Sequence record: DRR378314_1883
Direction: 5' to 3' (one strand)
DNA: 20,000 nucleotides
The first letter of the stretch is position 1; each line of letters begins with the position of its first letter. Made by a program: the position numbers and the translations under genes. The notes under the pieces are model-generated. The model was not told the DNA's origin, did no database searches, and saw only the letters and a program-made list of their open reading frames with translations. Below are positions 649 to 19,720 of this stretch, piece by piece.

Positions 649-1347
649 ATGAATATAGATACCTTAACCCTAAACAAAAAAAACGGACATAAATTAAATG
701 GTTTCACCCATGAGGATATCGGCGACGACCACCTCTATACAGGTTTGGAAACCCCAATGAAACCAGATGCCTTTAAACTTTCGGACACAGAAAAAAAACA
801 ACGTATTGCTTTATTATTTCAGGAGATTATGGATATCATGGGATTGGATCTTACAGATGATTCCCTGAAAGGTACTCCTGAGCGAGTTGCCAAGATGTAT
901 ATCGATGAGATTTTCTCTGGTTTAAATCCGGCAAACAAACCAAAAATAGCATTATTCGATAATAAATATCAGTACAATCAAATGTTGGTGGAAAAGAACA
1001 TTACTTTCTATTCCAACTGCGAACACCACTTTGTACCCATCATTGGAAAAGCACATGTGGCCTATATCTCTTCCGGAAAAGTAATAGGCCTGTCCAAGTT
1101 GAACAGAATTGTACAGTATTATGCCAAAAGGCCACAGGTACAGGAACGCCTTACCAATCAAATCGCAGAGGATTTGAAACGTATTTTAGGCACTGACGAC
1201 GTTGCGGTAATTATAGATGCCAAACACCTTTGTGTGTCATCAAGGGGCATTAAAGATGAAACATCCGCAACCGTAACCTCCTATTATGGAGGTAAATTTA
1301 ACACTCCATCAAAAGTAGCAGAATTACAAAACTATCTTAAAAATTAA
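649..1347 (+). CDS. folE: GTP cyclohydrolase I (FolE, type IA)
   Basis: TPERVAKMY, S-N-CEHH-F-VP, GLSKLNRIV, RPQVQERLT and H-L-C-V-S-SRG motifs, including the Zn ligands. Confidence 0.97.
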   Translation: MNIDTLTLNKKNGHKLNGFTHEDIGDDHLYTGLETPMKPDAFKLSDTEKKQRIALLFQEIMDIMGLDLTDDSLKGTPERVAKMYIDEIFSGLNPANKPKIALFDNKYQYNQMLVEKNITFYSNCEHHFVPIIGKAHVAYISSGKVIGLSKLNRIVQYYAKRPQVQERLTNQIAEDLKRILGTDDVAVIIDAKHLCVSSRGIKDETSATVTSYYGGKFNTPSKVAELQNYLKN

Positions 1348-1351
1348 TCTT

Positions 1352-1582
1352 ATGGACCTCATTAACGAAGCATTGGAATTTGAACAAAGAAAACTAAAAT
1401 CGCTCTCCACCAGCGACAGAATTGAAATTTCGAGGAAAGCAAAAGCGCTAATCCTGGGACTGAATGAAATTTATAAAAGCAAGAAGGATGACAAGATTAT
1501 GGATATCATGAAACGCCTGACCGCCATAAAACGTAAAGTAGAAAAAAGGCTGAAAGGCAAACATTTGGTTACCAATATTTAA
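1352..1582 (+). CDS. Small basic helical hypothetical protein
   Basis: 76-aa ORF packed tightly in the operon (4 nt after folE, 10 nt before the SDR). Confidence 0.75.
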   Translation: MDLINEALEFEQRKLKSLSTSDRIEISRKAKALILGLNEIYKSKKDDKIMDIMKRLTAIKRKVEKRLKGKHLVTNI

Positions 1583-3490: not shown

Positions 3491-5752
3491 ATGAAGTATT
3501 GCTTACATTTGACCTTACTTTTTTTATCTTCCATTATTTATGCCCAAAATCTACCGGGCACAAAATTGAAGATCAAAAAGTTCCATGGCGACATCGTGCT
3601 GGACGGGGTTCTGGATGAAAATGCCTGGAAGGAAGCCGACGTAGCTGATGATTGGTATCAAAACTTTCCGGTAGATAGTTTGCCCTCCCCTTTTCAAACA
3701 GAGGCTCGGATGACTTACAACGACGAGTTTCTATATGTATCCTTTGTATGTTATGACGATGACACGCCAGATGTAGTGAGCACCCTTAGAAGGGATTTTA
3801 GTTACGCCATCAACGATAATGTTTCCTTTATATTTGGACCGTACAATGACCGTTTAAACGGGTATTTCTTTAATGTAACTGCCATAGGGGCTCAGAGAGA
3901 GGGAACTGTATCCAGTGGCGGAAATGGAGAAAACGCCTTCAATATATATTGGGACAATAAGTGGTACTCCAAGGTTGTAAGATACGAGGACAAGTGGATT
4001 GCCGAATTGGCAATCCCGTTCAAAAGTTTTAAATACAAGAGCGATGTTAAGGAATGGAACGTTACTTTTGATCGTTTGGATAAAAAACGGAATATAAAGT
4101 CGGCCTGGGTACGTACACCACGACAATTCTATACCGGTACCTTTGCCTATGCGGGGCAGCTTATTTGGGAGGGTCCTATTCCCAAAGCCAGTTCCAACAT
4201 TTCACTTATCCCTTATATCTCTGGAGGTGCATTCGAAGATAGGGAGGTAGACCCAACAGATTCCTCAACAGAACTACAGACTGGATTCGATGCCAAAGTA
4301 AGCATTAGCCCATCAATGAATTTAGACCTTACGGTGAATCCCGATTTCTCCCAAATAGAAGTTGATGAACAAATACTAAATTTATCAAGGTTCGAATTTA
4401 GGTTCCCGGAACGCAGACAATTTTTCCTAGAAAATAGCGACCTTTTTGACAATGCCGGTTTTGATTCGGCCAGACCCTTTTTCTCCAGACGTATCGGTAT
4501 TATCCAGGATTCTACCGGAATTCCCCAGAAAGTACCTATAATGTATGGGGCTAGACTTAGTGGAACTATAAACGAAAAATGGCGCTTAGGGGTCATGAAT
4601 ATGCATACAAAGAAAATGTTGGAATTGGGATTACCTGCCCAAAACTATACCGTGGCCACGGTTCAAAGAATGTTTCACGAACAATCCAGTTTTTCCATGA
4701 CCTTTGTCAACAAAGAAAGTTTGGGGGTAACGGAAAGTGATTCCCTGAAATATTACCACCCTAGTATTTTTGGCAGACCTACCTTGGAAGATCGCCTTAG
4801 GCCCAACACTTATAATAGGGTCCTTGATGCCGATTTAGTACTGAGAAGTAAGGATAACAGGTGGTACCACAGTTCGTTCCTGGCACAATCCTTCGACAAT
4901 AGAAACAAAGCCAAGACCATGTCCGGTTCAGCCTTCTTTCAATATTCGGACCGTAGTCTTTTGGCTAATTTGGGAGCCTTCTTTGTTGATAAAAACTTTA
5001 ATGCCGAAGTTGGTTATGTACCGGGAAGTATGGTATATCCAGGACAAATGGGCTATTATTCCGAAGTAGCCTACAAAATTTACCCTGAGAACAACAGTTT
5101 ACTTTATTCAGGGCCCCAAGCCAGAATAAATGACACTTATTTACCTAATGGTAATTTGGTAGACAGGGAATTTGCCATAGGCTACGTATTCAATTTTAAA
5201 AATTCTGCAAACCTAACCTTCGATTTAGCCCATATTTTTCAACAATTGACCTTTGATTTTAATCCTGTAAACAATGTGGAATCCAGAAAATTTTTGGAAG
5301 GCGAGGAATATCGTTGGAATACTATTTCTGCTTCCTATCAAAGTAACACGGTGAAGAAAATGAATTTCCTATTAAATTCAACTTATGGCGGATTTTACAA
5401 TGGCACCAATCTAAATATATCCGGGCAGCTGGATATGCGCTTTCAACCCTACGTAAATATTGCCATGCGTTTTGACTATAATAATCTTAAATTGGATGAA
5501 GATTATGGTGAAGCAGAGTTATTTCTTTTAGGACCAAAGTTGGATGTTACCTTTACGGATAAGCTTTTCTTTACGGGTTATTACCAGTACAATAATTTAA
5601 CGGACAACATGAATTTGAATGCTAGGTTTCAATGGCGATATAAACCGGCTTCAGATTTCTATATCGTTTATACCGAAAATTATTTTCCTTCCAATTTTAC
5701 GAGCAAGAATAGGGCTTTGGTATTTAAACTTACCTATTGGATAAATCTTTAA
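3491..5752 (+). CDS. CBM9-like/DOMON sugar-binding domain + DUF5916 outer-membrane protein
   Basis: Sec signal peptide (…IIYAQ), LDGVLDENAW, ELAIPFKS and the TVNPDFSQIEVD…FPERRQFFLE motif. The beta-strand-rich C-terminus ends KLTYWINL. Confidence 0.8.
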   Translation: MKYCLHLTLLFLSSIIYAQNLPGTKLKIKKFHGDIVLDGVLDENAWKEADVADDWYQNFPVDSLPSPFQTEARMTYNDEFLYVSFVCYDDDTPDVVSTLRRDFSYAINDNVSFIFGPYNDRLNGYFFNVTAIGAQREGTVSSGGNGENAFNIYWDNKWYSKVVRYEDKWIAELAIPFKSFKYKSDVKEWNVTFDRLDKKRNIKSAWVRTPRQFYTGTFAYAGQLIWEGPIPKASSNISLIPYISGGAFEDREVDPTDSSTELQTGFDAKVSISPSMNLDLTVNPDFSQIEVDEQILNLSRFEFRFPERRQFFLENSDLFDNAGFDSARPFFSRRIGIIQDSTGIPQKVPIMYGARLSGTINEKWRLGVMNMHTKKMLELGLPAQNYTVATVQRMFHEQSSFSMTFVNKESLGVTESDSLKYYHPSIFGRPTLEDRLRPNTYNRVLDADLVLRSKDNRWYHSSFLAQSFDNRNKAKTMSGSAFFQYSDRSLLANLGAFFVDKNFNAEVGYVPGSMVYPGQMGYYSEVAYKIYPENNSLLYSGPQARINDTYLPNGNLVDREFAIGYVFNFKNSANLTFDLAHIFQQLTFDFNPVNNVESRKFLEGEEYRWNTISASYQSNTVKKMNFLLNSTYGGFYNGTNLNISGQLDMRFQPYVNIAMRFDYNNLKLDEDYGEAELFLLGPKLDVTFTDKLFFTGYYQYNNLTDNMNLNARFQWRYKPASDFYIVYTENYFPSNFTSKNRALVFKLTYWINL

Positions 5753-5773: not shown

Positions 5774-6793
5774 TTATTTCCTGCTAAAAATATGATGTTG
5801 GGTTGCTGTAAAATAATCACAGAAAATTTGGTTTAACTTATTGCCTTTTGTACTTGCCTTCACTCCCAAACTTGGAAAGATTTCTATGATATTCCGAGAA
5901 ATTCCTTTCACCGATTGAACTGCTACATTGTGTATTTCTTCCATATAATCCGCCTCAATTGCCCTTTTTTCATCAATCCTTTTCTCAATTTCACTGGCGT
6001 AAGAGAATATTTTTCGATTGGACTCTAGAATAGTCTCTTCCAACGCGTCCAACTTCCGATTGTCTATATCCGCAGAGGCTTCTTCCATTAAATGTTCAGC
6101 TATTCCAATATAATTTATCCATAAAGTTAAATCGGCAAATAGGGCAAAGGGAATTTTAAAAATAGGGTGAGGCAAATAGCAACCATTATAGCCGAAACTA
6201 CAGCTCTTATGGGCCATATAATCTGCAACAGCAAAAGAATGGGTGGCGGTAGCTTTTAGCCCCATGGTATTCCAATCTTCAATTACCTGTACTGCATCTT
6301 TAGGAATTACAAATGACTGCACCCTAGGCGACCCGTCATTATTCCGCAATTTGATCCCGTTTTCCACAATTTCCGCGTTCAATGTGAAATGTGTGAGGTA
6401 GGGAGCGCCAGTGGCATAGCGCCATTTTCCCGAAATTCTGAAATAATCACCAACTATTTCAGCCTTTCCAAAAACTCCTCCACTTCCCCCTAAACAAGGG
6501 GAAACCCCTGTCGTCATAAAAATTTCCTGAGCTTTAATTGGCTGTAAATTGCCTATAAAATAATTGGCCCCACTACATAGTGTGATGGTCCATCCCAAGC
6601 TGGCATCAATCTTGGCCAATTCCCTAAGCCGGGCCAATCCCGCTGTTAGGGATAGTTCCAATCCACCATAAGTTTTAGGGACCCATATGTTCCATAGGTT
6701 TTCATTTATGATCCAATCCAAAACATCTTGTGGAAATACATCGACTTCCCAATTTATTCTACTATGCTTGTGCAGGCTGTCTACTAATGTCAT
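5774..6793 (-). CDS. Acyl-CoA-dehydrogenase-fold protein, probable two-component flavin-dependent monooxygenase (HsaA/HpaH-C2-like oxygenase subunit)
   Basis: VPKTYGGLE, LAKIDASLGW, ISGKWRYATG and DWNTMGLKATATHSF motifs. The C-terminal DYFTATQH is hydroxylase-like and the IYEG motif of true ACADs is absent. Confidence 0.8.
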   Translation of the reverse strand: MTLVDSLHKHSRINWEVDVFPQDVLDWIINENLWNIWVPKTYGGLELSLTAGLARLRELAKIDASLGWTITLCSGANYFIGNLQPIKAQEIFMTTGVSPCLGGSGGVFGKAEIVGDYFRISGKWRYATGAPYLTHFTLNAEIVENGIKLRNNDGSPRVQSFVIPKDAVQVIEDWNTMGLKATATHSFAVADYMAHKSCSFGYNGCYLPHPIFKIPFALFADLTLWINYIGIAEHLMEEASADIDNRKLDALEETILESNRKIFSYASEIEKRIDEKRAIEADYMEEIHNVAVQSVKGISRNIIEIFPSLGVKASTKGNKLNQIFCDYFTATQHHIFSRK

Positions 6794-7364
6794 CTATAAT
6801 TAATTTTCTCCATTTAAAATATCCCGAGGTTCCCACTATAAACAAGAAAATGGTGAGGCCTGCATAAATGTACAGTTCTTTGTAAAAGAGCAAGGGAATT
6901 GAAATTATATTACTAATATTTAAGTAGATCCAATTCTCCATTTTTCTTTTGGCCATGAGCCACATCCCGGCCCAGGCAAAGGCACTAACAGCCGCATCCC
7001 AGATAGGAACATCCGAATTGGTATGAAATCTTAGCCAGTAGACCATAAGTGCAAAACAGGCGATCACAATACCAACTGCCTTTATTTGTTCTGCCTTATT
7101 CGAGTAAGTAATAGGACTTTCTTCTTTTTGACTACCATACTTCCAATAAAGCCAACCGTAGATACTCATAAGCAAATAGTATAGATGAAGTATAATATCC
7201 GCATACAGTTTTGTTTGGTATAGGACCCAAATACCAATTAAAATGGAAACAATTCCAAATAAATAATTATGGATATTATTATTCCTTGCCAATAGCACTT
7301 GGGCTACTCCAAGGACTGTTCCAGTTGCCTGTAACCATGTAAGCTGTGTGAAAAAATTCTCCAT
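6762..7364 (-). CDS. pnuC: PnuC-family vitamin transporter, probably thiamine-related (PnuT-like)
   Basis: LYAD..LHLYY..MSIYGWLYW and AGMWLMAKRKMENW motifs with multiple TM segments. First gene behind a TPP riboswitch. Confidence 0.9.
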   Translation of the reverse strand: MENFFTQLTWLQATGTVLGVAQVLLARNNNIHNYLFGIVSILIGIWVLYQTKLYADIILHLYYLLMSIYGWLYWKYGSQKEESPITYSNKAEQIKAVGIVIACFALMVYWLRFHTNSDVPIWDAAVSAFAWAGMWLMAKRKMENWIYLNISNIISIPLLFYKELYIYAGLTIFLFIVGTSGYFKWRKLIIDDISRQPAQA

Positions 7365-7440
7365 CGATTCCCTAACTTTAATTTATGAAATGGGAAGATG
7401 AAGAAAGTAGTGATTTGCAATGGTGCAACATCGAACTAAA

Positions 7441-7530
7441 ATCCCTACGCCGGCATTATCCGGATCAGGTTCGGAGTTAAAACTCCTGGGTATCATCTCA
7501 GCCTGCCCATATTGGCAAGCACCCCATTTC
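7441..7530 (-). ncRNA. TPP riboswitch (THI element) aptamer
   Basis: Minus strand reads GAAAUGGGGUGCUUGCCAAUAUGGGCAGGCUGAGAUGAUACCC-AGGAGUUUUAACUCC-GAACCUGAUCCGGAUAAUGCCGGCGUAGGGAU. All hallmark motifs are present (GGGGUGC, CUGAGA, ACCC, ACCUGAU, GAUAAU loop, GCGUAGGGA). Confidence 0.97.
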
Positions 7531-7535
7531 AAGGA

Positions 7536-7543
7536 CAAAGCTA
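7536..7543 (-). promoter_or_regulatory. -7 promoter element (TAGCTTTG) driving riboswitch-pnuC-monooxygenase
   Basis: Exact TAnnTTTG match 5 nt upstream of the aptamer 5' end. Confidence 0.75.
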
Positions 7544-7678: not shown

Positions 7679-8548
7679 CTAATCCTTCTTCACCAAAGTA
7701 TTCAACACCAAGGCCGAAATGATCATAAATAGTCCAATAAAACTATAAATAGTGTAGGACTCATTGAACCATAAAACACCAATGGAAATTGTAAAAATTA
7801 CCTCAATGTATTTTAAGGGAGCAACCAGGTTTGTTTTTGCAATTTGAAATGCCTTGGTCATATATATTTGCCCCATGAAACCAAATACACCTAACAATAG
7901 TAAAAACATCCATTCGTAACCTATAGGCCTAACCCAAACAGTTATAGCCAAAAGTCCGCCAATTACGGTCCCTACGAACATAAAATAATTTACTACAACT
8001 GCAGGGTGATCGGAAACTCCTATTTTTCTAATAACCACATAAACCATTCCACTAAAAACAGAGGCGGTTAAGATGAGGGTCAGCCCTATAGTATTAATAT
8101 TGCCATCAAACCCTTTTAAAACCAGTACCCCTGCAAAGGCAGTCAGGAAGAAAAGCCATTGAATATTTTTCAACTTTTCCCTTAACAAGAAAACCGCAAA
8201 AACAGCAGCAAAAATAGGGGCTATATACCGTAATGAAACTGCAGTACCAACATTCAAGTATTTTAAGGAAAAAAAGAACAAACTCATAGCCGTTAGGCCC
8301 AACACAGCTCTTAACAACATAAGTCTTCTCTTGATACCAAATATGGGAATCCCCTTGACCAAAATATAGGTTGTTGCCAACACCAAGGAACCAAAACATC
8401 TAAAGAATACAATTTGAAATGTTGGGATCCGGTCTAAATACTTCACGGATACATTCATCAACGCAAATGAAAAGGTACTGATGGTCATAAAAAGCAATGC
8501 TTTTTTAAAATCCAGTCCGGAAGATTTACTCCATTTAATATGTAACAA
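7679..8548 (-). CDS. EamA/DMT-family transporter (start codon uncertain)
   Basis: About ten TM segments, two EamA repeats (QIVFFR, APIF…LLREKL, TKAFQ…VAPLKY). The track start is TTG; the real start may be CTG at 8515 or ATG at 8488. Confidence 0.9.
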   Translation of the reverse strand: MLHIKWSKSSGLDFKKALLFMTISTFSFALMNVSVKYLDRIPTFQIVFFRCFGSLVLATTYILVKGIPIFGIKRRLMLLRAVLGLTAMSLFFFSLKYLNVGTAVSLRYIAPIFAAVFAVFLLREKLKNIQWLFFLTAFAGVLVLKGFDGNINTIGLTLILTASVFSGMVYVVIRKIGVSDHPAVVVNYFMFVGTVIGGLLAITVWVRPIGYEWMFLLLLGVFGFMGQIYMTKAFQIAKTNLVAPLKYIEVIFTISIGVLWFNESYTIYSFIGLFMIISALVLNTLVKKD

Positions 8549-9066: not shown

Positions 9067-10632
9067 TTAAGATAAATAAACATAAATCCCAATTACCGCA
9101 GCCAAAATAGCATACCCAACCGGCTTTAAATATTTCCAAGGTTTAATATCAACCTGCCTCGTATATTCTTGGGTGTAGTCTGTTTCCCGAGGAGCAAATT
9201 GGCTAACAACAAACATGATTATTATAGTTAATACGAACAATATGCCCATAAGGTGTAAGAAACTGATATTGGGTTTAATGACATACAGTGTAACCAAGTA
9301 TGTAACAACACTAAACAAAATAGAAATGTTTGCAGCTTTTCCAGACACACGCTTAGAAAAAATCCCAACAATAATAATTGCCAAAATGGGGACGCTATGT
9401 GTACCGTTCAATTCTTGCAGGTATGTAAATATCCCACCTTGAACACCATAAAGCAACGGTGCAATTCCCATCGAAAATAGAGCCAAGATAATACCAAATA
9501 TTTTACCTGCCTTTACTACCTGTTTCTCTGAGGCGTCCTTATTTATATATTCTTTATAAAAATCAAGACCAAATAAAGTCACCGAACTATTTAAGGCGCT
9601 ATTAAAAGAACTCAAAATGGCTCCAAAAAGTACAGCCGCAAAAAATCCTATAAATGCCAACGGGAGCACAGCCTTTACAACCATAGGATATGCTTCATCT
9701 GCATTGGCCAGATCACCATTGAAAAGATAAAACGCTATTATACCGGGCAGCACCACTATAAAAGGGCCCAGCATTTTAATAAATGCCGCCAATAGAAGGC
9801 CTATTTGCCCTTCTTTTAAATTTTTAGCACCAAGTGCTCTTTGAATAATCGCTTGATTCGTTCCCCAATAGTAAAAGTTAACTATAATCATCCCAGTAAA
9901 AAGTGTCCAAAATGGTACGTCGGAATCTGGTCCTCCAATAATATCAAATTTCTCAGGAAGTGCTGTGGTCAATATTTTTAAACCTGAAAATACATTGCCA
10001 TCACCTATCTTCATCAAACCAAAAATGGGAATTAGAGACCCCCCAATAATCAAACCTACTGCATTAACAGTATCAGATACGGCCACTGCTTTTAGACCTC
10101 CAAAAATAGCATAGATACTACCAATTATGCCAATTGACCAGACCGTTACCCAAAGTGCCGGCTCTGGGTTCATTCCAATCATCTCAGGAATATCGAACAT
10201 AGAATTAATGGCCAAAGCTCCTGAGTATAGAACAGTAGGAAGCATAGAAATGGCATACCCCAAAAGGAACAGCATAGAAACTATGGTCTTGGTAGATTTA
10301 CCATATCTTTTTTCCAAAAATTGAGGAATGGTGGTAATACCTCCTTTTAGATATTTAGGCAATAATATAAAGGCTGTAAAGACCATTGCTACAGCGGCAA
10401 CTACTTCATAGGCCATAATTGGCAATCCATCTCTAAAGGACACCCCGTTCATTCCTACAATTTGTTCAGTGGACAGGTTGGTAAGCAACAATGAACCTGC
10501 TATAACCGGACCAGTCAAACTTCTTCCTCCCAAAAAATAACCATCTGAAGACTTTTCATTGGTCTTTCTAGTAGACCACCAAGCTATGACAGCTACCAAT
10601 AATGTAAAAGCGGCAAAAGAAATCAATCCCAT
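9067..10632 (-). CDS. Sodium:solute symporter (SSS), probable L-arabinose transporter
   Basis: YFLGGRSL, LTNLSTEQIVG, GGLKAVAVSD and NQAIIQRALGAK motifs. Last gene of the ara operon; substrate inferred from context. Confidence 0.9.
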   Translation of the reverse strand: MGLISFAAFTLLVAVIAWWSTRKTNEKSSDGYFLGGRSLTGPVIAGSLLLTNLSTEQIVGMNGVSFRDGLPIMAYEVVAAVAMVFTAFILLPKYLKGGITTIPQFLEKRYGKSTKTIVSMLFLLGYAISMLPTVLYSGALAINSMFDIPEMIGMNPEPALWVTVWSIGIIGSIYAIFGGLKAVAVSDTVNAVGLIIGGSLIPIFGLMKIGDGNVFSGLKILTTALPEKFDIIGGPDSDVPFWTLFTGMIIVNFYYWGTNQAIIQRALGAKNLKEGQIGLLLAAFIKMLGPFIVVLPGIIAFYLFNGDLANADEAYPMVVKAVLPLAFIGFFAAVLFGAILSSFNSALNSSVTLFGLDFYKEYINKDASEKQVVKAGKIFGIILALFSMGIAPLLYGVQGGIFTYLQELNGTHSVPILAIIIVGIFSKRVSGKAANISILFSVVTYLVTLYVIKPNISFLHLMGILFVLTIIIMFVVSQFAPRETDYTQEYTRQVDIKPWKYLKPVGYAILAAVIGIYVYLS

Positions 10633-10691
10633 AATTCAAAAGGTATAATTAGTTGGCTTAAAAATGTACTCCAATAGCAACCTAATGGTTC

Positions 10692-11876
10692 CTATTTTAC
10701 TGAAAATACAAATGTGGTTTTTGATGTATATCTTTCACCTGGGTTCAAAACAACCGTTGGGAAGTCTTTTTGATTGGGCGTATCTGGAAAATGCTGTGTC
10801 TCTAGGCAAAAACCCGTTCTATGGGCATAAGTCCCTCCACTTGGCGCGGGTAAGGTGCCATCCAAAAAGTTTCCTGTATAAAATTGAATTCCTGGCTCAT
10901 CCGAAAATACTTCCATCATGCGGCCACTGCCATTATCATAAGCAGAAGCAACTAGACGCATGGTATCGTCTTCCCCATTTAAAACCCAACAATGGTCGTA
11001 TCCCTTGCCTAAAATCAACTGTTCATTGTTAGTTCCAATTTCCTTTCCTATTGCTTTTGGTTTTCTAAAATCAAATGGTGTACCCTCTACCTTTTTAATT
11101 TCACCCATAGGAATTAAAGTGGCATCCACTGGCAAATATGCATCCGCATTTATTACAATATCATGACCTAGAATATCCTTGTTAAAATCTCCTGTTAAGT
11201 TGAAATAAGCATGTTGGGTCAAATTTACTATCGTTGTTTTATCGGTAGTAGCCTCATACGTTACCTCCACTTTATTATCATTTGTAAGCGTATAAAGTAC
11301 TGTAACCTCTAAATTACCGGGATAACCTTCTTCTCCATCCCTGCTTACATAGGTTAATTTTAAGGTCACACTATCCTCTCTTTCAATGGGTTGAGCCGTC
11401 CATACAACCCGATCAAAACCATTGACACCACCGTGCAAATGATTGGGACCGTCATTGGTAGCTAAGGTATATTCCTTATTATTCACTGAGAATTTACCTT
11501 TAGCGATGCGGTTACCATAACGTCCTATCAGGGCTCCAAAAAAAGGATTCTCCTTTAGGTAATCCTCCAAATTGTCAAAGCCTAAAACCACATTTTCGAA
11601 CTCACCATTTTTGTTTGGAACTTTTAATGAAGTAATTCTACCTCCGTAGGTAATTACATCCATTTCAACACCTTTTACATTTTTTAGATTATACATCTCA
11701 ACCTTAGTGCCATCGGGCATTGTTCCGTAATCCGATTTGATCATAGTCAATTTTACTTTGGGGCTACCGCTCATGTTTTCGATGGATTTATTTTGTTTTC
11801 CGTTTTTACATTGAATATTTAAGCCCACTAGGGCTACCAGTAAAACATTAAAAAAGGAACCTTTATATATTCTCAT
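10692..11876 (-). CDS. galM: Aldose 1-epimerase (mutarotase) with lipoprotein-type signal peptide
   Basis: GRYGNRI, HLHGG, TQHAYFNL, GYDH and CLETQHFPD motifs. N-terminal hydrophobic stretch ends in NIQ-C. Confidence 0.93.
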   Translation of the reverse strand: MRIYKGSFFNVLLVALVGLNIQCKNGKQNKSIENMSGSPKVKLTMIKSDYGTMPDGTKVEMYNLKNVKGVEMDVITYGGRITSLKVPNKNGEFENVVLGFDNLEDYLKENPFFGALIGRYGNRIAKGKFSVNNKEYTLATNDGPNHLHGGVNGFDRVVWTAQPIEREDSVTLKLTYVSRDGEEGYPGNLEVTVLYTLTNDNKVEVTYEATTDKTTIVNLTQHAYFNLTGDFNKDILGHDIVINADAYLPVDATLIPMGEIKKVEGTPFDFRKPKAIGKEIGTNNEQLILGKGYDHCWVLNGEDDTMRLVASAYDNGSGRMMEVFSDEPGIQFYTGNFLDGTLPAPSGGTYAHRTGFCLETQHFPDTPNQKDFPTVVLNPGERYTSKTTFVFSVK

Positions 11877-11906
11877 AATAATTAATTTTAGTCAGAAGAG
11901 TTAAGG

Positions 11907-13403
11907 CTATTTAAACATATAATAAGCTTCATTGGCTTTGATGGTACTTTTGAAGTCTCTTATAGTGGTATCTTCGTCAATTACCAATGATTCTATATTG
12001 GCCATCTCGGCAAAATCTTCCATTTGCTCTACCGTAATATTTTCACTGTAGCAGGTATGATGCGCACCTCCACCTAATATCCATGCCGTACAAGCAGTTT
12101 CGAAATCGGGTAAAGGTTTCCACATGACTCTGGCCACAGGTAAATTTGGTAAATCCTCCAGAATTTCTTCACCGACCGTTTTATTGATTAATAACCTGAA
12201 TCGGTTTCCAAAGTCCATTAAGGCTGCCACGAGCGAATCCCCGGCCCTACCGTTAAAAACTAAGCGCACAGGATCTTCTTTACCTCCAATTCCTAAAGGG
12301 TGTATTTCACAAGACGGTTTATTGGCTGCCAAAACTGGATCAACCTCCAACATATGTGACCCTAAAACTCTAGGAGCTACTGGATCTAAGTGATATGTAT
12401 AATCTTCCATAAAAGCATTTCCTCCTTCCAAACCAGACCCCATAACTTTCATGGCACGGGTTAATGCGGCAGTTTTCCAATCGCCTTCCCCTGCAAATCC
12501 ATAACCCTTTTGCATTAAGCGTTGTACGGCTATTCCAGGTAACTGTTTCATTCCGTGCAGGTCTTCGAAAGTATCACTGAAACCCTTGAAATTGCCATCC
12601 ACCAAGAATTTTTCAAGCCCCAATTCTATTCGCGCTGCTTCAATTAAAGATTGTCTGTTTTCACCTCCTTCAAGAAGTGAATCCATCATGGTATAGGATA
12701 CCTCATATTCCTTAACAAGTTGGTTTATGGCATCATTTGAAATAGAATTAATAACCTGCACCAAATCTCCAACCGCATACGTATTTACAGAAAACCCAAA
12801 CTTGGTTTCTGCCTCCACTTTATCACCATCGGTTACGGCAACAAAACGCATATTGTCTCCAAACCTTGCAAATTTCGCTCCTTGCCAATCATCCCACCCG
12901 GCTGCAACACGCGTCCAATCCCCAATTTTCTTTTGAACACGGTCTGTTGACCAATGGCCAACAACTACTTTTCTGTTTTTCCGTAAGCGACTGACCATAA
13001 ATCCAAATTCCCGGTCACCATGTGCCGCCTGATTTAGGTTCATAAAATCCATATCCATAGTATCCCACGGAATATCCCTATTAAATTGGGTATGCAGATG
13101 TAATAATGGTTTTTGAAGTGCGGTCAGCCCCCTTATCCACATTTTTGCGGGAGAAAAGGTATGCATCCATGTAATTATACCAATACAATTCTTTTCTTGA
13201 TTTGCAGCCGTCAAAGTCTCATATATTTCATCTGATGACTTTACAGTTGGTTTGTAGATGATATTGACAGGAATTAAAACAGAATCATTTAATACACTAG
13301 CTATTTTAGTGGAGTTGTCAGCAACCTGCATTAATGTATCTGGTCCGTATAAATCCTGACTTCCTGTTATAAACCAAACTTCCTTTTTAGAAATATCTAT
13401 CAT
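11907..13403 (-). CDS. araA: L-arabinose isomerase
   Basis: [55 protein letters not shown] and GGAHHT motifs. Confidence 0.98.
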
Positions 13404-13424
13404 TTCAAATATTTATGTTATTGT

Positions 13425-14126
13425 TTATTGACCGTAGTAAGAGTTGGCACCATGTTTACGATCGTAATGTTTCTTTATCAATGAGTCCTTTAATCTGGGG
13501 GCTTTTGGATTTATCTGCAGTGTTAAATACGCCATTTCTGCAATTACCTCCAAAACTTTGCTATTGTAAACTGCTTTAGCTGCACTTTTTCCCCAAGCAA
13601 ATGGACCGTGATTACCGATTAATATCATTTCTACTTCCCTATACGAAAGTTTTTTTTCTTTGAAACAATCAATAATTTGAACGCCTGTATTGTGCTCATA
13701 ATTACCTTCTATAAGATCATCGCGCATAGGCTGTGCACAGGGAATATCCGCAGTTAAATGATCGGCATGTGTAGTTCCAAAAATTGGAATATCCAATTGG
13801 GATTGGGCCCAAGCGACCGAGTAAGTCGCATGAGTATGGGCAATTCCTCCTACATCCTCCCAATTTTTATAAAGATAAGCATGTGTTTTTGTATCCGAAG
13901 AAGGACGCATACTTCCTTCAACTATATTGTTTTCAAAATCAACGATTACTATGTCCTCTGGTTTTAAAGCCTCATAGGCAATCCCACTTGGTTTAATTGC
14001 AAAAACACCATTCTCCCTATCAACGGCACTTACATTTCCAAAAGTATAAACAACTAAATTTAATTCATTCAGATGCATATTGGCTTCGTAGCATTCCTGT
14101 TTTAAATGTTTAAATTTTGATTTCAT
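13425..14126 (-). CDS. araD: L-ribulose-5-phosphate 4-epimerase
   Basis: TFGNVSA, IKPSG, PSSDTKTH, HTH and GTTHAD motifs; C-terminal KHYDRKHGANSYYGQ. Confidence 0.97.
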   Translation of the reverse strand: MKSKFKHLKQECYEANMHLNELNLVVYTFGNVSAVDRENGVFAIKPSGIAYEALKPEDIVIVDFENNIVEGSMRPSSDTKTHAYLYKNWEDVGGIAHTHATYSVAWAQSQLDIPIFGTTHADHLTADIPCAQPMRDDLIEGNYEHNTGVQIIDCFKEKKLSYREVEMILIGNHGPFAWGKSAAKAVYNSKVLEVIAEMAYLTLQINPKAPRLKDSLIKKHYDRKHGANSYYGQ

Positions 14127-14137
14127 GATTTCTTAAT

Positions 14138-15802
14138 TTAAGTAACAGATTCGATGAACTCACTTAATTCCGAATAAGAATCCATTAAAAGATTATAGTC
14201 CGCAAGTTTATGCGGCTCAGGGAAATATTCTGCTTCAAAATCACTTCCCATATGTTTAGCTGCTTCAATGACGGTTGGATAGATACCTGCAGCCACTGCT
14301 GCATAAATAGCAGCTCCCAATGCCGGTGCCTGATCGGATTCTGCCACTTTTATAGTTTTGTTTAAAACATTTGCCAAGGTTTGCATAATAAAAGGTGATT
14401 TTCTGGCCACCCCGCCTATGCCTATTACACTGTCTATTCTTACACCTTCTTCCTCAAAACGAGCCACAATTTTCTTGGAACCAAAGCAAATCGCATTTAT
14501 CAAGGCTTTAAAAATATGTGGTGCTTTTGTTCCCAAGGATAAATTGGACATGGCCGCTTTCAACTCCTGATTTGCATCAGGTGTTCGTCGTCCGTTGATC
14601 CAATCCAAAGCGGTAGGGATACTTTCTGAAATGGGAATTTGAGAGGCTTGATCACTTAATACACGGATAAAGCCAAAGTCTATTTCCTCTTTTAATTTAT
14701 TTTTTTGATCTTCGGTAAGGATATCGGAGGACAACACCAAATTATCAATTGGCCAATACAAAACATCTTTAAACCAAGCCAATACATCCCCGAAGGCCGA
14801 TTGTCCAGCTTCCAGTCCAATGGATCCAGGAATGACAGAACCATCAACTTGACCACATATACCTCTTACGGTTCTACTTCCAATAATTTCTTTTGGAGAA
14901 ACCAAAATATCACAGGTGGAAGTTCCCATAACACGTACTAAGGTGTTTTGATCTATTTTTGCTCCTACTGCACCTGCATGTGCATCAAAGGTGCCAACGG
15001 AAATTATGGTATCCGTCGATAAGCCCAGCTTTTTTGCCCATTCTTTGTTCAAGTTACCTGCAACATGATCGGATGTATAGGTTTCATCATAAAGCCTTCC
15101 TCTAAGTTGGGAAAGATATGGATCTAATAGATGCAGGAAGTCTTCAGAAGGTAACCCATTCCAATCCTCATGCCACATAGCCTTGTGGCCTGCGGCACAA
15201 CGACTTCGTTTAAATGTTTTTAAATCCTTATCCTCAATTAACAAATAGGTCATTAAATCACAGTGTTCCATCCAGGTATAGGCGGCATTCCCAACAGCTT
15301 CATCTATCCTTATAATATGTAATATTTTGGCCCAAAACCATTCCGATGAATAGATACCACCTTCATATTTAGTAAAATTAACTCCGCCCCAATTAGCTGC
15401 CAACCTATTAATTTCGTTGGCTTCATTAATGGCCGTATGATCTTTCCATAGAACCATCATGGCATTGGGGTTCTCTTTAAAACCTTCAACCAAGGCTAAA
15501 GGTGTCCCATTTTCAGTAACCGGAACAGGTGAAGAACCTGTTGTATCAATACAAATACCTTTTATTTCCAATGGGCTTACATTTCCCTTTTTAACGACTT
15601 CCTTAATAGTAACTTCAAGACCTTCAATATGATCTAAAGGATGTTGCCGAAATTGGTTAATGGATTCATTGCAATATTTATTTGTTCTCCATCTCGTATA
15701 ATAATCAACACTAGAAGCCAATTCCTTTCCTGTTGCTGTGTCAATTAAAATTGCCCTTACAGAGTCAGAACCATAATCCAGCCCAATCACATAACTTTTC
15801 AT
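14138..15802 (-). CDS. araB: Ribulokinase (FGGY family)
   Basis: IGLDYGSDSVRA, FRQHPLD, LWKDHTA, GGIYSSEWFWAK, EAGQSAFGD and DWINGRRTP motifs. Confidence 0.97.
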   Translation of the reverse strand: MKSYVIGLDYGSDSVRAILIDTATGKELASSVDYYTRWRTNKYCNESINQFRQHPLDHIEGLEVTIKEVVKKGNVSPLEIKGICIDTTGSSPVPVTENGTPLALVEGFKENPNAMMVLWKDHTAINEANEINRLAANWGGVNFTKYEGGIYSSEWFWAKILHIIRIDEAVGNAAYTWMEHCDLMTYLLIEDKDLKTFKRSRCAAGHKAMWHEDWNGLPSEDFLHLLDPYLSQLRGRLYDETYTSDHVAGNLNKEWAKKLGLSTDTIISVGTFDAHAGAVGAKIDQNTLVRVMGTSTCDILVSPKEIIGSRTVRGICGQVDGSVIPGSIGLEAGQSAFGDVLAWFKDVLYWPIDNLVLSSDILTEDQKNKLKEEIDFGFIRVLSDQASQIPISESIPTALDWINGRRTPDANQELKAAMSNLSLGTKAPHIFKALINAICFGSKKIVARFEEEGVRIDSVIGIGGVARKSPFIMQTLANVLNKTIKVAESDQAPALGAAIYAAVAAGIYPTVIEAAKHMGSDFEAEYFPEPHKLADYNLLMDSYSELSEFIESVT

Positions 15803-15825
15803 ACAGCAATTATTTGGTTATTTGA

Positions 15826-15833
15826 CAAATGTA
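15826..15833 (-). promoter_or_regulatory. -7 promoter element (TACATTTG) of the araB operon
   Basis: Exact TAnnTTTG on the minus strand, 23 nt upstream of the araB ATG. Confidence 0.7.
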
Positions 15834-15840
15834 GCATTTA

Positions 15841-15861
15841 TAAATGTTATTTACACACTTA
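15841..15861. promoter_or_regulatory. Putative AraR (NrtR-family) operator 1
   Basis: TAAATGTTATTTACACACTTA, an imperfect palindrome of GT-N7-AC type. It overlaps the expected -33 region of the araB promoter. Confidence 0.8.
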
Positions 15862-16259
15862 TATTTATTAAATATAAATTTTCATGTAACATTCAATTAG
15901 AAAAGCTATAATAACACTCCTGGAACACCTCTTTTAATCCGGTTAAATTTTCCTTTGGCTTATTTATTTTTGTTTGATTGAACGTATTATGTTTATCCAA
16001 ACTGCCACAGTCTAGAAATATAAAGCCGTATTTTGATTTGGCCTTTACAATTGTCTTGACTTATTACTTAAAACACTTTTTAACTTTCAAAAGTGAAGTA
16101 ACTATTACAAAGCGATGGCAGGAGCATCCAACTTTATTACTTTGTCCTTATTGCCCCATATTTAAATGGCACTTTCCCACCACTACGCATAAATTATGTT
16201 GTATGTATAATTTTTATATAGTTGCAAAAATAAACCATCATGAACAAATGTATTTATAT

Positions 16260-16280
16260 TAAATGTTAGGCCAACACTTA
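16260..16280. promoter_or_regulatory. Putative AraR operator 2 (upstream of araR)
   Basis: TAAATGTTAGGCCAACACTTA. It abuts a candidate araR promoter (TTTG 16284-16287, TATCTTAG 16306-16313). Confidence 0.8.
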
Positions 16281-16328
16281 TCTTTTGTGTCTTCTATAAA
16301 TATTATATCTTAGCCTAAAAATAAGGAA

Positions 16329-17024
16329 ATGGTGGTAGAAGGGTACAACCTTGCAGATAAGGTTTTTCTAGCTGTAGATTGTATAATCTTCGGATTTGAT
16401 AATGAAGATTTAAAAGTGCTATTAATTCAGAGGGACTTTGAACCTGAAAAAGGGAAGTGGTCACTGATGGGTGGGTTCGTACAACACCACGAGACCTTAA
16501 ATGATGCCGCTTCCAGAGTTCTGCATAGATTAACCGGTGTACACGATATATATATGGAACAACTTTATACATTTAGTGAAGTTGACAGAGATCCATTGGC
16601 GAGAACTATTTCCACATCCTACTATGCAATCATCAATATTGAAAAACACAACGAAGAAATTACCGAGCAAAACAATGCCAAATGGTTTAGTTTGTCCGAT
16701 GTACCAGACTTAATATTTGATCACAATCAGATGTTGTATAAGGCTATCAAAAGATTACGTAGAAGAACCTCTATAAATCCAATTGGTTTTGAACTTTTGC
16801 CTGAGAAGTTTACAATGCGTCATTTGCAAAAATTGTACGAGGCCATCTTGGACAAAAAATTAGACAAAAGGAATTTTATAAATAAAATAAATTCTATGGA
16901 CATCTTGATCAAGCTAAAGGAAAAAGACATGACCTCTTCTACAAAAGGCTCTTACCTTTATATGTTCGATCAGGAAAAATATGACGCGAAAAATAGAAAT
17001 GACTTTTATTTAAAATTATCCTAG
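16329..17024 (+). CDS. araR: NrtR-family (Nudix + winged HTH) transcriptional regulator, AraR-type
   Basis: AVDCIIFGF, W.LMGGFV, EQLYTF…RDP..R.IS, LIFDH and FELLPEKFT..LQ.LYE.IL…DKRNF motifs. Degenerate Nudix box; divergent from the ara operon. Confidence 0.88.
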   Translation: MVVEGYNLADKVFLAVDCIIFGFDNEDLKVLLIQRDFEPEKGKWSLMGGFVQHHETLNDAASRVLHRLTGVHDIYMEQLYTFSEVDRDPLARTISTSYYAIINIEKHNEEITEQNNAKWFSLSDVPDLIFDHNQMLYKAIKRLRRRTSINPIGFELLPEKFTMRHLQKLYEAILDKKLDKRNFINKINSMDILIKLKEKDMTSSTKGSYLYMFDQEKYDAKNRNDFYLKLS

Positions 17025-17205
17025 AGTAGAATTTATTTAAAAATAAAAAAGTCCCATTTTATTTGTGCCAATTTGCTATTAGTTATTTCCTTTGGAGTAA
17101 TCAGCTACGCCTTGAACATATACATCATATTGCCAACTTGTCCAAATCATTCCTAATCGATTAGTCCTGTTCTAAATAAGAAAGGACCGTCCATAACTTT
17201 AATAG

Positions 17206-17537
17206 GCACATTATTTCTGTGGAATATATTAGTTCTGCTGTAATTCCGGCCATAATTTTCATTGGTAGTTTGTTCTCTACCGCGTATTTAGGGACACACC
17301 TCATCAGATGAATCCCTAACTTTCCGAAGCTAGTGGATCGGCATTCGACTTTATTGCATGTTCTTTTACTGTTAGCCCATATCAGTCCCAACTATTCAAG
17401 CCCATAGGTGGAGTCTGTGCCCATTCTTTAGAGTTGGATTTTTTTTTTGTTTTAAGATTCGATTTTTATTGGTGCTACCACATGACATTAAAAACGGCAA
17501 ACAAAAATATTATAGCAAAACATCCATTTCTCTTCAT
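17206..17537 (-). pseudogene. Decayed GH27 glycosidase (beta-L-arabinopyranosidase/alpha-galactosidase-like) lipoprotein gene
   Basis: ATG at 17537 with a frameshifted signal peptide (MKRNGCFAIIFLFAV/LMSC). Then KEWAQTPPMGLNSWD*YGLTVKEHAIKSNAD (stop at 17382-17384), and in another frame KLGIHLMRCVPKYAVENKLPMKIMAGITAELIYSTEIMC. These match GH27 motifs TPPMGWNSWDCYG and KFGIHIMRGIP. Confidence 0.85.
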
Positions 17538-17563
17538 GCAAGTGTGGTAATTAAATCTAATAT

Positions 17564-19720
17564 TTAATTGATTCCTGAAAGAGTTGGCACTACAGGTTTA
17601 ATACTACCATCAGGGTTAAACTCTAATTTATCAATACAAACCTCTCTATTAAAACCTGCCGAATCGCCCATATCAATACCATTTGGACGATTAAAACGAT
17701 GATATACTATATGCCAAACATCACTATTGGGAGTTTGGATCACACTGTTATGACCTGTTCCGTAAATACCATTCTCAGCGTCTTTTACTAAAATCAAGTT
17801 GTCCTTCGGTATTTCCAGAGGCCCTGTTGGACTCTTCGATGTTGCATATCTTACACGATAATCAGGACTTCTTGTATCATCTTCGGACCATAAAAAGTAA
17901 TAAATTCCATTTCTATAAAACACTTCCGTTCCTTCTCTAAATGTTTTATCGGGAGTCAATATTTTCAATGTATTTTCCTTGATGGAAACCATATCATCAT
18001 TCAATTCAACACAGGCCATATAGCTATTGCCCCAATACAAATAATTTTTGTCCGATACCGGATCTATAAATATATCCGGGTCTATTTCCTGTCCTCCATT
18101 TGCTCCTTCTGGTTTTGATGCTATTAAAGGTTTTCCTAAATCCACAAAATGCCCTGTTGGGCTGTCTGAAACTGCTACCCCTATTTTTTGTGCTGCTGTG
18201 TAATAATAAAAGAACTTATATTCCCCTTTTATTTTCCTTTCAATAGCTGTTGGTGCCCAAGCATTCCTATCCGCCCAACTAACATCTTTTTTAAGGTCCA
18301 GAACTACACCTTCATCCTTCCAGTGGATCAAATCGTCTGAAGAAAATGTTTTGAAATAAGTGCCTGACCAATTTTTAAATCCATCACTTGTTGGGTATAT
18401 ATAATATTTTTGTGTTTTCTGAGAGTAGATTATTTCGGGGTCCGCATAAAAACCATTCAATACCGGATTATTATCTTCCTTTACAATTGCTTTATAGGTT
18501 TTTTGTTTGCTTCCGGATTCAATGGTATAATTAACCGCACCATTGGAAAAATCCTTGACACCGTTAGTAGAAATATTTACCCATGAAACTGTCTTGATTT
18601 CGGGATCAAATTTATTGATGTCCGTTCCCAAGTTAACGGGAATATAAATAGTATTGTCATCATCATTGACAACCACATTGTTCTTTTTAACATGAGTAGA
18701 GTTAAAGCCTAAGAACGATCCCTTACCTAAGAAACCCCATTTTTCAATCAACGCTTGGGTTTCATTTTCCGTGATGCGGATCACCGTACCATGTCTTGGG
18801 TGAAAATTCATGGTAATATCATTGTCCACAATCGAAAAATTCTGAAGATCCTTAGTTTTTGTAAATTGATATTTTCCTGAAGTATACATATCATACATTA
18901 AAATATACTCATCAGAATCTATTAATTTAAAAATACCAGAGCCCTCAACGGGCGCATCTGTTTGATCGAAAAAACCCTCCTGTTGAACATATCCTTCGGT
19001 AAGTTTATTGGACACCGCTTTTCTAATACCACCTCCAGAGCTTTCGTTCTTAAAAAACAAGTTATACATACCATCCTTGTATATGATATCACCATCAATA
19101 CAAGCACTATTGGAAGGACTATGGAACAATTGTTTTGGCACAGAGGACAAACCGGTAAAATCCTTATTGGCGTAAGCATAGTATATGATATCCGGTCCTT
19201 CATCTCCTAGCATTGACCAATAAATCATGTATTGATCTGTCTCCGTATCATAAATGGTCTGTGGAGCCCAAACACGTTTGATGTCACTAAATTCCTTTGG
19301 ATAAGTTTGTGGGATATTCACAATACTTGACGACCAATTGATGAGATCGGTCGATTTCATTAAAATCATGGCATAGTTGTTCCAACCTTGTTTAGGCACA
19401 TACAAATCCGTTACCACCATGTAAAATGTCTTACCATCTGCTCCACGTAGAATATGCGGATCTCTTACACCTCCTGATGAACTAATCTTTTTGGAATCTA
19501 TTATAGGTTGATTATTATTAAGAGCTTCATAGTTAAATCCATCTTTACTTATGGCATAGTGGATTGCTTCTTCTCCAGGTCCGTTTCCGGTAAAATAAGC
19601 AAATAGATAATTGGTGAATTTATCCTCCTCCTGCTCAATGGAAGCCGATTTGCAAGAAAGTAAGGTTGTAACTATAATAACAACCGCTAAAAGCCCATAT
19701 TTTAATTTTAGGTATTTCAT
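17564..19720 (-). CDS. Lipoprotein with two tandem GH43-like beta-propeller domains (probable arabinofuranosidase/arabinosidase)
   Basis: Lipobox LLS-C. Domain 1: RDPHI, WAPQ, IDGDI, EGS, RHG. Domain 2: YADPEI, WAP, IDPDIF, FREG, GHNS, YH, NRE. A linker or Ig-like segment lies between them. Confidence 0.9.
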   Translation of the reverse strand: MKYLKLKYGLLAVVIIVTTLLSCKSASIEQEEDKFTNYLFAYFTGNGPGEEAIHYAISKDGFNYEALNNNQPIIDSKKISSSGGVRDPHILRGADGKTFYMVVTDLYVPKQGWNNYAMILMKSTDLINWSSSIVNIPQTYPKEFSDIKRVWAPQTIYDTETDQYMIYWSMLGDEGPDIIYYAYANKDFTGLSSVPKQLFHSPSNSACIDGDIIYKDGMYNLFFKNESSGGGIRKAVSNKLTEGYVQQEGFFDQTDAPVEGSGIFKLIDSDEYILMYDMYTSGKYQFTKTKDLQNFSIVDNDITMNFHPRHGTVIRITENETQALIEKWGFLGKGSFLGFNSTHVKKNNVVVNDDDNTIYIPVNLGTDINKFDPEIKTVSWVNISTNGVKDFSNGAVNYTIESGSKQKTYKAIVKEDNNPVLNGFYADPEIIYSQKTQKYYIYPTSDGFKNWSGTYFKTFSSDDLIHWKDEGVVLDLKKDVSWADRNAWAPTAIERKIKGEYKFFYYYTAAQKIGVAVSDSPTGHFVDLGKPLIASKPEGANGGQEIDPDIFIDPVSDKNYLYWGNSYMACVELNDDMVSIKENTLKILTPDKTFREGTEVFYRNGIYYFLWSEDDTRSPDYRVRYATSKSPTGPLEIPKDNLILVKDAENGIYGTGHNSVIQTPNSDVWHIVYHRFNRPNGIDMGDSAGFNREVCIDKLEFNPDGSIKPVVPTLSGIN

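Follow-up and report, generated by a model that had tools for sequence, protein, structure and literature searches.

Closest described systems

PnuT transporters of thiamine (vitamin B1) are described, in the available part of the report, as working by facilitated diffusion combined with metabolic trapping (PMC5749112). In the Bacteroides-type thiamine operon, a thiamine pyrophosphate (TPP) riboswitch is followed by genes for the TonB receptor OMthi, PnuT and thiamine pyrophosphokinase (TPK); the accessible published description of this arrangement agrees with the PnuC-family genes that we find near TPK (PMC5613172; bioRxiv 10.1101/867226). Here we analyse 20,000 nucleotides (nt) of sequence record DRR378314_1883 (this whole stretch is referred to as the window), in which the minus strand carries an operon with the same riboswitch-PnuT-enzyme order. 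Unlike in the Bacteroides operon, the partner of PnuT is not a kinase but a protein of the acyl-CoA dehydrogenase (ACAD) fold that resembles oxygenases, and TPK was not found in 25 of the 27 carrier genomes. Some carriers come closer to the Bacteroides arrangement, having either a TonB receptor within the unit (genome G384) or a second TPP riboswitch with a separate TonB receptor (genome G001). The literature searched contained no paper that we found to link pnuT or a TPP riboswitch to an ACAD-fold gene. We regard the pnuT-enzyme pair as a variant of the operon for thiamine uptake that is widespread and had not been described before.

Judged by description, the closest conceptual precedent is OarX-FmnO, a TPP-riboswitch-controlled reductase and flavin mononucleotide (FMN) monooxygenase found in 87 genomes. 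The accessible part of the report names Firmicutes, Actinobacteria and Proteobacteria as its hosts, reads the system as salvage or detoxification of a thiamine breakdown product and leaves its role open (PMC11223231). As far as that account goes, the two systems have in common a putative flavin monooxygenase gene that is controlled by a TPP riboswitch and clustered with genes of thiamine transport or salvage. By the same partial account they differ in that FmnO is always found beside the short-chain dehydrogenase (SDR) OarX and not beside pnuT, and in that all FmnO carriers have ThiE, whereas the window-type pair occurs in Bacteroidota, has pnuT as the partner and is found in carriers about half of which lack ThiE. 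No SDR gene is present in the window operon. At a single locus among those inspected, in Arenibacter latericius (L009:6201-6911, plus strand), a short-chain dehydrogenase gene that recalls OarX lies 235 nt behind the enzyme gene.

The pair can also be likened to the PnuC-NadR and PnuC-AAA_28 kinase pairs of nicotinamide riboside uptake, in which a Pnu facilitator is directly followed by an enzyme acting on the imported molecule. The difference is that the kinase in those pairs has an obvious trapping chemistry, whereas an oxygenase has none.

A conserved operon under a TPP riboswitch

The operon consists of the following elements, in the order of transcription:

7536..7543, minus strand: promoter-like TAGCTTTG, unchanged in all 9 loci aligned and a candidate Bacteroidetes -7 box
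7425..7536, minus strand: TPP riboswitch aptamer (RF00059), 58.2 bits against a gathering score of 54.3
7357..7424, minus strand: expression platform, proposed from RNA folding
6762..7364, minus strand: pnuT-type PnuC-family transporter gene, 200 amino acids (aa), assigned by PF04973, TIGR01528 and the TPP riboswitch in front
5774..6793, minus strand: ACAD-fold gene of the group D flavin-monooxygenase type, 339 aa, assigned by profile and fold matches

The promoter-like element fits the Bacteroidetes -7 box consensus, TAnnTTTG. The match to RF00059 covers the full model (positions 1-105 of 105; E 2.5e-09) and is the sole Rfam match in the 20 kb. The two genes overlap by 32 nt (6762..6793), with the ATG of the enzyme gene inside the transporter gene. 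An earlier note, made from the letters of the sequence, had recognised a promoter, a TPP aptamer, a pnuC-family gene and an ACAD-fold gene overlapping it by 32 nt, with neither a TonB receptor nor TPK nearby. Our analysis found every one of these elements where the note had placed it, confirmed the length of the overlap and detected neither a TonB receptor nor TPK in the window. The nearest genome, G001 (100% complete, with an enzyme 95% identical to that of the window), was used as a stand-in.

Conservation of the pairing was assessed in three independent samples: genomes of closely related species (55-84% identity), a 401-genome sample of the phylum and metagenome contigs. In the species genomes, pnuT lies directly upstream of the enzyme gene in 16 of 17 loci, and a TPP aptamer is present in all 17, eight of them reaching the gathering score and nine scoring 46.7-53.9 bits (E <= 4e-6). 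At the seventeenth locus (L016) the aptamer stands directly before the enzyme gene, without pnuT. The phylum sample yielded 25 of 401 genomes with an enzyme homologue at E <= 1e-20, remote paralogues included. Adjacent pnuT was found in 10 of these 25, at enzyme identities down to 29-31%, and each of the 10 linked loci has a TPP match upstream (nine below the gathering score, the weakest with E 0.023); the remaining 15 genomes have remote homologues in other contexts. Homologues in four genomes of family f12 are located beside esterases, a GMC oxidoreductase or a radical SAM gene, and no TPP match accompanies them. The metagenome scan matched at least 596 stretches, of which at least 487 encode relatives, and the best 80 of these relatives (42-94% identity) were analysed. 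After exclusion of five loci with too little upstream sequence, pnuT was found directly upstream in 65 of the 75 evaluable loci. Eight of the linked loci are cut by the contig end; in all the other 57 an aptamer is present, scoring 55-121 bits with our own aptamer model. Two of the ten unlinked loci (L093 and L111) have the aptamer directly before the enzyme gene; in two lineages (L016/L111 and L093), pnuT does not stand between aptamer and enzyme gene. In many lineages the coding regions of pnuT and the enzyme share between 1 and 32 nt, and a few lineages have a short gap instead.

The pairing recurs widely in marine and soil Bacteroidota and in several families. Its recurrence at dozens of independent loci puts the arrangement far outside what chance would produce. 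That the TPP-riboswitch-controlled two-gene unit is real and conserved is close to certain, and the same can be said of the operon, the riboswitch, the fold and the linkage. The earlier note would have been contradicted by homologues that mostly lack this linkage, but in the clade to which the window belongs most homologues do have it, both to pnuC and to RF00059.

In a maximum-likelihood tree of 41 enzyme homologues, 19 of the 20 rows of clade A (support 98/98) are linked to pnuT, and L016 belongs there too. Clade B (support 98/94) has 6 of 11 rows linked, with the unlinked genes of f12 and L025 nested inside. Such a tree would mean either an old pnuT linkage with later losses or two separate recruitments. 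One sequence in the tree, from a contig labelled as a Rickettsiales metagenome-assembled genome (L015), clusters tightly with Marinoscillum, a member of Bacteroidota; this contig is probably mis-binned.

Individual loci show further layouts. In G384 (L054, G384:C46:71000-83000) the TPP riboswitch, a TonB receptor gene (797 aa), pnuT and the enzyme gene form one unit, which is followed, after a gap of 436 nt, by genes for a type I phosphodiesterase / nucleotide pyrophosphatase (568 aa) and a ThiE-like protein; ThiC was not found in this genome (ThiG was not searched there). A Bacteroidales-type genome (L022/L043, G197:C2) has its own pnuT beside TPK and, in addition, a second, Flavobacteriaceae-like riboswitch-pnuT-enzyme unit, with an intact pnuT (67-69% identity) and an enzyme gene disrupted by a frame change and a TAA stop. 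At L041 (G332:C44) a TPP aptamer match of 40.9 bits (1212-1360, minus strand) precedes a TonB receptor gene on the same strand, and a remote enzyme homologue (25% identity) is located just upstream of that match. This layout could be a coincidence or a third kind of thiamine link. At L055 (G304:C1:3000-13000) a pnuC-like gene and an AAA_28 kinase gene lie beside a TPP-riboswitch-controlled TonB receptor gene, ThiE and two small open reading frames, and a similar layout is suggested in G180:C4.

The transporter

The 200-aa product of 6762-7364 is a member of the PnuC/PnuT family, with 166 bits to PF04973 (NMN_transporter; cut-off 27.3) and 96.3 bits to TIGR01528 (cut-off 42.45). We call it PnuT because a TPP riboswitch precedes its gene; it is this riboswitch alone that points to specificity for thiamine and would set the protein apart from PnuC, PnuX and PnuN. 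The window PnuT is 43-92% identical to the transporters of 17 other linked loci that were aligned. A PnuC-family match is present in 163 genomes of the 401-genome sample, and among these the copies adjacent to the enzyme gene make up the top identity band, with at least 46% identity to the window PnuT. This is a further difference from the Bacteroides operon, as the PnuTs of family f31, mostly linked to TPK, are 36-45% identical to it. The single unlinked member of the top band (G084) is followed by an AAA_28 kinase gene, and the resulting pair looks like a nicotinamide-riboside system. An AAA_28 kinase gene is likewise found beside the second PnuC-family copy of G304, and in at least 19 sampled genomes (f31, f36 and one other family) a PnuC-family gene lies within 1 kb of TPK. 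Since PnuC-family genes elsewhere adjoin TPK or an AAA_28 kinase, the gene next to the transporter normally encodes an enzyme acting on the compound that is imported.

The enzyme

Standard domain models barely recognise the 339-aa enzyme. Acyl-CoA_dh_N of Pfam matches it with 23.3 bits (cut-off 22.9), and the ACAD middle and C-terminal domains were not detected at E <= 0.1, so the three-domain set of an ACAD is not seen at the level of Pfam. NCBIfam gives weak matches to HsaA (E 1.3e-13) and the HpaH oxygenase (E 1.9e-12), as well as to SfnB and DszC, all below the equivalog cut-offs (50.4 vs 450 for HsaA, 46.8 vs 650 for HpaH-C2, 37.7 vs 430.9 for SfnB and 18.8 vs 850 for DszC). A profile built from 25 enzyme homologues and searched against solved structures matched Rv3094c best (E 2.7e-27, residues 22-353 of 376), followed by HsaA (E 3e-26), XiaF (E 2e-22), HpaH-C2 (E 2.5e-21) and DszC (E 1e-8), with true ACADs at E 1e-6 or weaker. 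For the AlphaFold model (pLDDT 89.4, pTM 0.89), the best Foldseek matches in the PDB were XiaF, Rv3094c, HsaA and HpaH-C2, with query-normalised TM-scores of 0.85-0.89 and rmsd of 2.5-3.5, compared with 0.72-0.79 and about 4-6 for true ACADs. Identity to the solved structures is 14-18%. Both the profile and the predicted fold thus rank the group D monooxygenases above ACADs, which bears out the resemblance to group D oxygenases (HsaA, HpaH C2) suggested in the earlier note on the strength of a D-x(5)-QH-like tail.

The tail itself is present as D326-x5-Q332-H333, with H333 invariant and D326 and Q332 nearly invariant in the 25 homologues. None of the 35 invariant and 24 nearly invariant columns of this alignment holds a conserved Glu, the ACAD catalytic base, whose position is known from MCAD and IVD. 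T184, which is T or S across the 25 sequences, aligns with the Ser of GTGSH in Rv3094c; it belongs to the motif G-L-K-A-T-A-T-H, of the general form G-x-x-x-T-x-[ST]-H, in which the Thr/Ser is kept. The C-terminal RDxFTATxH (RDxFTATQH) aligns with the tail of Rv3094c and brings H333 opposite the His of FTATAH. In HpaH-C2 a Ser/Thr beside flavin N5 and a C-terminal His have such roles, and by alignment the window enzyme has both of these features of group D monooxygenases, presumably with similar functions.

With Rv3094c, HsaA, XiaF, HpaH-C2 and DszC the enzyme shares the three-domain fold and full-length profile matches, the Thr/Ser of the above motif, the C-terminal His and the lack of a reductase alongside. 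It differs from them in being shorter (339 aa vs 376-422) and in having a reduced C-terminal domain, with a gap of about 17 residues relative to Rv3094c. We know of no group D monooxygenase for which control by thiamine has been reported. Judging from sequence and modelled structure, the enzyme is a divergent, shortened ACAD-fold protein resembling two-component (group D) flavin monooxygenases and standing outside the characterised subfamilies. Public databases name members of the family 'acyl-CoA dehydrogenase', 'AidB-like', 'hypothetical protein' and, once, 'indole-3-acetate monooxygenase'; in the Protein Atlas they appear in 'acyl-CoA dehydrogenase' clusters only, mostly from Bacteroidota.

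Proposed control by TPP

No intrinsic terminator was found between the aptamer and the pnuT start codon. The aptamer is followed first by a hairpin whose sequence varies (about 7406-7424), and the expression platform contains an element, TTCATCTTCCCATTTCAT at 7385-7402, that is kept in the leaders inspected, with the consensus TTCATCT(T/C)C(C/T)CATTTCAT. Folding of the window leader yields a hairpin that would sequester the start codon, its 5' arm at 7392-7405 and its 3' arm, containing the ATG at 7362-7364, at 7357-7372. With the aptamer folded separately, all 16 leaders examined form such a hairpin, in which the conserved element supplies the 5' arm and the pnuT AUG falls within the 3' arm. 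The arms are clade-specific, being UUCCC/GGGAA in Arenibacter and UCAUUG/CAAUGA in Gillisia, Salegentibacter and Marinoscillum; the hairpin was accordingly judged by per-sequence folds, the two clades using different registers. In several leaders folded without constraint, the element at 7385-7402 pairs instead with the aptamer strands GAAAUGGGG (7522-7530) and GAGAUGA.

The simplest reading of these predicted folds is that TPP controls pnuT by translational repression. When TPP is scarce, the 5' strand of the aptamer would pair with the conserved downstream element and the pnuT start codon would be free. When TPP is bound, the aptamer would stay closed and the conserved element would close the hairpin over the start codon. 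At one locus (L087) two tandem aptamer matches (1620-1705 and 1737-1822; 60.6 and 54.9 bits with our own model) precede a single pnuT-enzyme unit and may represent a tandem TPP riboswitch.

Thiamine genes in carrier genomes

To place the pair in its metabolic context, we surveyed thiamine genes in 27 carriers (G001, G272, G228, G197, G304, G196, G400, G180, G384, G260 and G402-G418). TPK was found in 2 of the 27, ThiC in 5 and ThiE in 13, and in 13 carriers neither TPK nor ThiE was found. ThiL is present in 5 of 5 carriers tested, and ThiK and ThiM were each found in 0 of 5, the carriers tested for these two being ThiE-less. The scarcity of TPK, which one search found in 0 of 23 genomes, extends to relatives that do not carry the pair: among these it was found in 0 of 7 genomes of f5, 0 of 12 of f12, 1 of 21 of f4 and 0 of 14 of the f1 genera other than g2.

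Since ThiE is missing in 14 of the 27 carriers, a product that has to be coupled by ThiE, whether by the hydroxymethylpyrimidine (HMP) or the thiazole route, would be useless there, and a thiamine precursor of the HMP or hydroxyethylthiazole (HET) type is unlikely to be the product in these genomes. Among the substrates listed in the earlier note, intact thiamine-type compounds and analogues therefore stand, whereas precursors are disfavoured. The note had proposed a comparison with thiC and thiE, among other genes. The distribution of ThiE narrows the range of substrates. ThiC, found in 37 of 121 genomes of the class sample including the unpublished G499 (36 of 120 without it), shows no clear difference between carriers and that sample and was rejected as a correlate.

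Candidate kinases that might phosphorylate thiamine are present in the carriers. Searches for AAA_28 kinases gave matches in all 5 carriers tested, two of them strong in four of the five, and a conserved HipA_2-like kinase occurs in 22 of 28 genomes at 49% identity or more, with one additional weak match at 28%. In Marinoscillum pacificum (L013:6009-6812, plus strand) the gene for the HipA_2-like kinase (PF20613) is located 40 nt behind the enzyme gene. Its homologues in other genomes (49-76% identity) sit elsewhere in the genome, and no TPP match was found near them in the four f5 genomes scanned; we considered it as the missing thiamine kinase and set this reading aside.

The complete genome of G001 has two TPP riboswitches only, one belonging to the pnuT-enzyme operon and the other to a separate 723-aa TonB receptor (L046:9844-12015, minus strand). 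ThiL is kept in this genome, and ThiC, ThiE, ThiG, TPK, ThiK and ThiM were not found. This leaves the step from thiamine to thiamine monophosphate without an assigned gene. There are two AAA_28 kinase genes in G001, one beside a second pnuC-like gene and one standing alone.

Possible function of the pair

Most bacterioplankton and many soil bacteria are unable to make vitamin B1, and the B1-related compounds that can be used shape microbial communities. Few pointers to missing steps of vitamin metabolism are as reliable as genes of unknown function that a riboswitch controls. Here, an oxygenase is placed where every other Pnu system has a kinase, and the gene pair is both frequent, with at least 487 relatives from the metagenome scan alone, and conserved across several Bacteroidota families. 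The pairing points to an undescribed step in vitamin B1 acquisition.

We lean, if only slightly, toward the following explanation as a whole. The locus would be a bicistronic operon repressed by TPP, whose PnuT acts as a facilitator admitting a thiamine-type molecule into the cytoplasm. We infer that translation of the enzyme gene is coupled to that of pnuT through the 32-nt overlap, that the enzyme is a cytoplasmic group D monooxygenase taking reduced flavin from a reductase encoded elsewhere, and that its substrate is the compound admitted by PnuT, which it would either convert to a usable form or make harmless. As the substrate, a vitamer or analogue with the thiamine skeleton intact is more likely than a pyrimidine or thiazole precursor, and the present data fit both salvage and detoxification of such a compound. 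Knowledge of the substrate would add a salvage or detoxification reaction to thiamine biochemistry, or show how a kinase can be dispensed with in driving a facilitator. The named family members, now annotated across the board as 'acyl-CoA dehydrogenase', could then be given a correct name.

A more specific version of this explanation is speculative, and we put it forward only tentatively. A specialised subclade of PnuT might import an unrecognised intact form of B1 from the environment, for example reduced, thione or otherwise S- or ring-modified thiamine, from which the oxygenase would make thiamine in the cytoplasm in one oxidative step. If so, a single oxidation would serve at once to recover the compound and to make facilitated diffusion directional, and many Bacteroidota of sea and soil would have a B1 salvage route that is new and draws on a hidden pool of B1 equivalents.

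A number of observations weigh against an oxygenase acting on what PnuT imports. The enzyme family is not exclusively thiamine-linked, because pnuT and a TPP aptamer are both missing from 8 of the 75 evaluable metagenome loci and, within clade B, from the f12 group and L025. Carriers include prototrophs and auxotrophs alike (ThiC in 5 of 27 vs 37 of 121), and therefore a phyletic signal for a pathway is absent. As the earlier note had pointed out, a reductase is not encoded here: there is no flavin reductase gene in the operon or beside the enzyme gene. The RNA libraries contain short contigs only, none of which bridges the junction at 6762-6793; near-identical pieces inside each gene were found in libraries X2 and X5, and the sole run that covers the junction is probably DNA. 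To our knowledge, mono-oxygenation turns no known natural thiamine derivative into thiamine. Finally, the available part of the report on OarX-FmnO describes knockouts without a phenotype on the thiamine oxidation products tested (PMC11223231).

Among the alternatives, a purely protective role survives best. PnuT would be unable to tell thiamine from natural antivitamins or damaged forms, and the oxygenase could serve to destroy these whenever uptake is on. The operon logic and the control by TPP would be the same, and carriers both with and without biosynthesis genes would be accounted for. A natural thiamin antagonist has been reported in waters, according to the accessible text (PMC12637900), and the nearest solved relative, Rv3094c, is described in connection with ethionamide metabolism in PDB titles and in the part of the literature available (PMC9904262). 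However, a toxic substrate of PnuT is not known, and tight translational coupling to the transporter is more typical of a processing or salvage partner; we consider this role unlikely.

The enzyme might also be co-regulated with pnuT and yet have nothing to do with import, as a TPP-sparing or bypass activity required once TPP-dependent enzymes fail, or as a gene merely riding on the operon. Some riboswitch classes, other than the one considered here, do control cofactor-independent isozymes, and the neighbours of some family members (esterases, the GMC oxidoreductase or the radical SAM protein) would be compatible with such a role. On the other hand, homologues ranging in identity from 95% to about 30% all retain the overlap with pnuT, and the linked PnuTs form a distinct, most similar band with G084 as the sole exception, which suggests co-evolution of PnuT and the enzyme. 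In addition, it is hard to see how a group D monooxygenase could stand in for a TPP enzyme. We regard this alternative as quite improbable.

A pure trapping or binding role is possible, but we would give it very little weight. The enzyme would in this case be the trap itself, or would assist PnuT without catalysis; by binding thiamine or modifying it minimally it would turn facilitated diffusion into net uptake and so replace the kinase. The enzyme gene does hold the position that TPK or an AAA_28 kinase has elsewhere, ThiK and ThiM were not found in the ThiE-less carriers tested, 13 carriers have neither TPK nor ThiE, and ThiL is present in all those tested. Nonetheless, TPK is scarce throughout the lineage, among carriers and non-carriers alike, so that the missing kinase is no evidence for trapping, and we rejected it as a sign of such a role. 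Candidate kinases, AAA_28 and the conserved HipA_2-like protein, are encoded elsewhere in the carriers, the conserved catalytic-looking residues argue for an active enzyme, and monooxygenated thiamine would still need phosphorylation to reach TPP. Prediction of a complex between PnuT and the enzyme gave scores of 0.00 and 0.00 against a mark of 0.34, which speaks neither for nor against binding. Lastly, a plain acyl-CoA dehydrogenase of fatty-acid or amino-acid catabolism misread as special, as the database names 'acyl-CoA dehydrogenase' and 'AidB-like' and the narrow pass of Acyl-CoA_dh_N might imply, is excluded as far as sequence and predicted fold allow, given the absent catalytic Glu, the rank of monooxygenases far above ACADs in profile and fold, the undetected middle and C-terminal domains and the control of the gene by a TPP riboswitch.

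Other genes in the window

The operon is flanked by two genes. Elsewhere in the window there are further unrelated genes and an ordinary arabinose-utilisation cluster that has no relation to the pnuT-enzyme operon:

7679-8548: EamA transporter gene, upstream flank
3491-5752: gene for a DUF5916 protein, downstream flank, convergent
9067-19720: arabinose-utilisation cluster, with genes for an SSF symporter, aldose 1-epimerase, AraA, a class II aldolase, an FGGY kinase and a GH43 enzyme

A regulator that belongs to this cluster, encoded within the same range (9067-19720), is of the Nudix/NrtR type and has an AraR-like winged helix.

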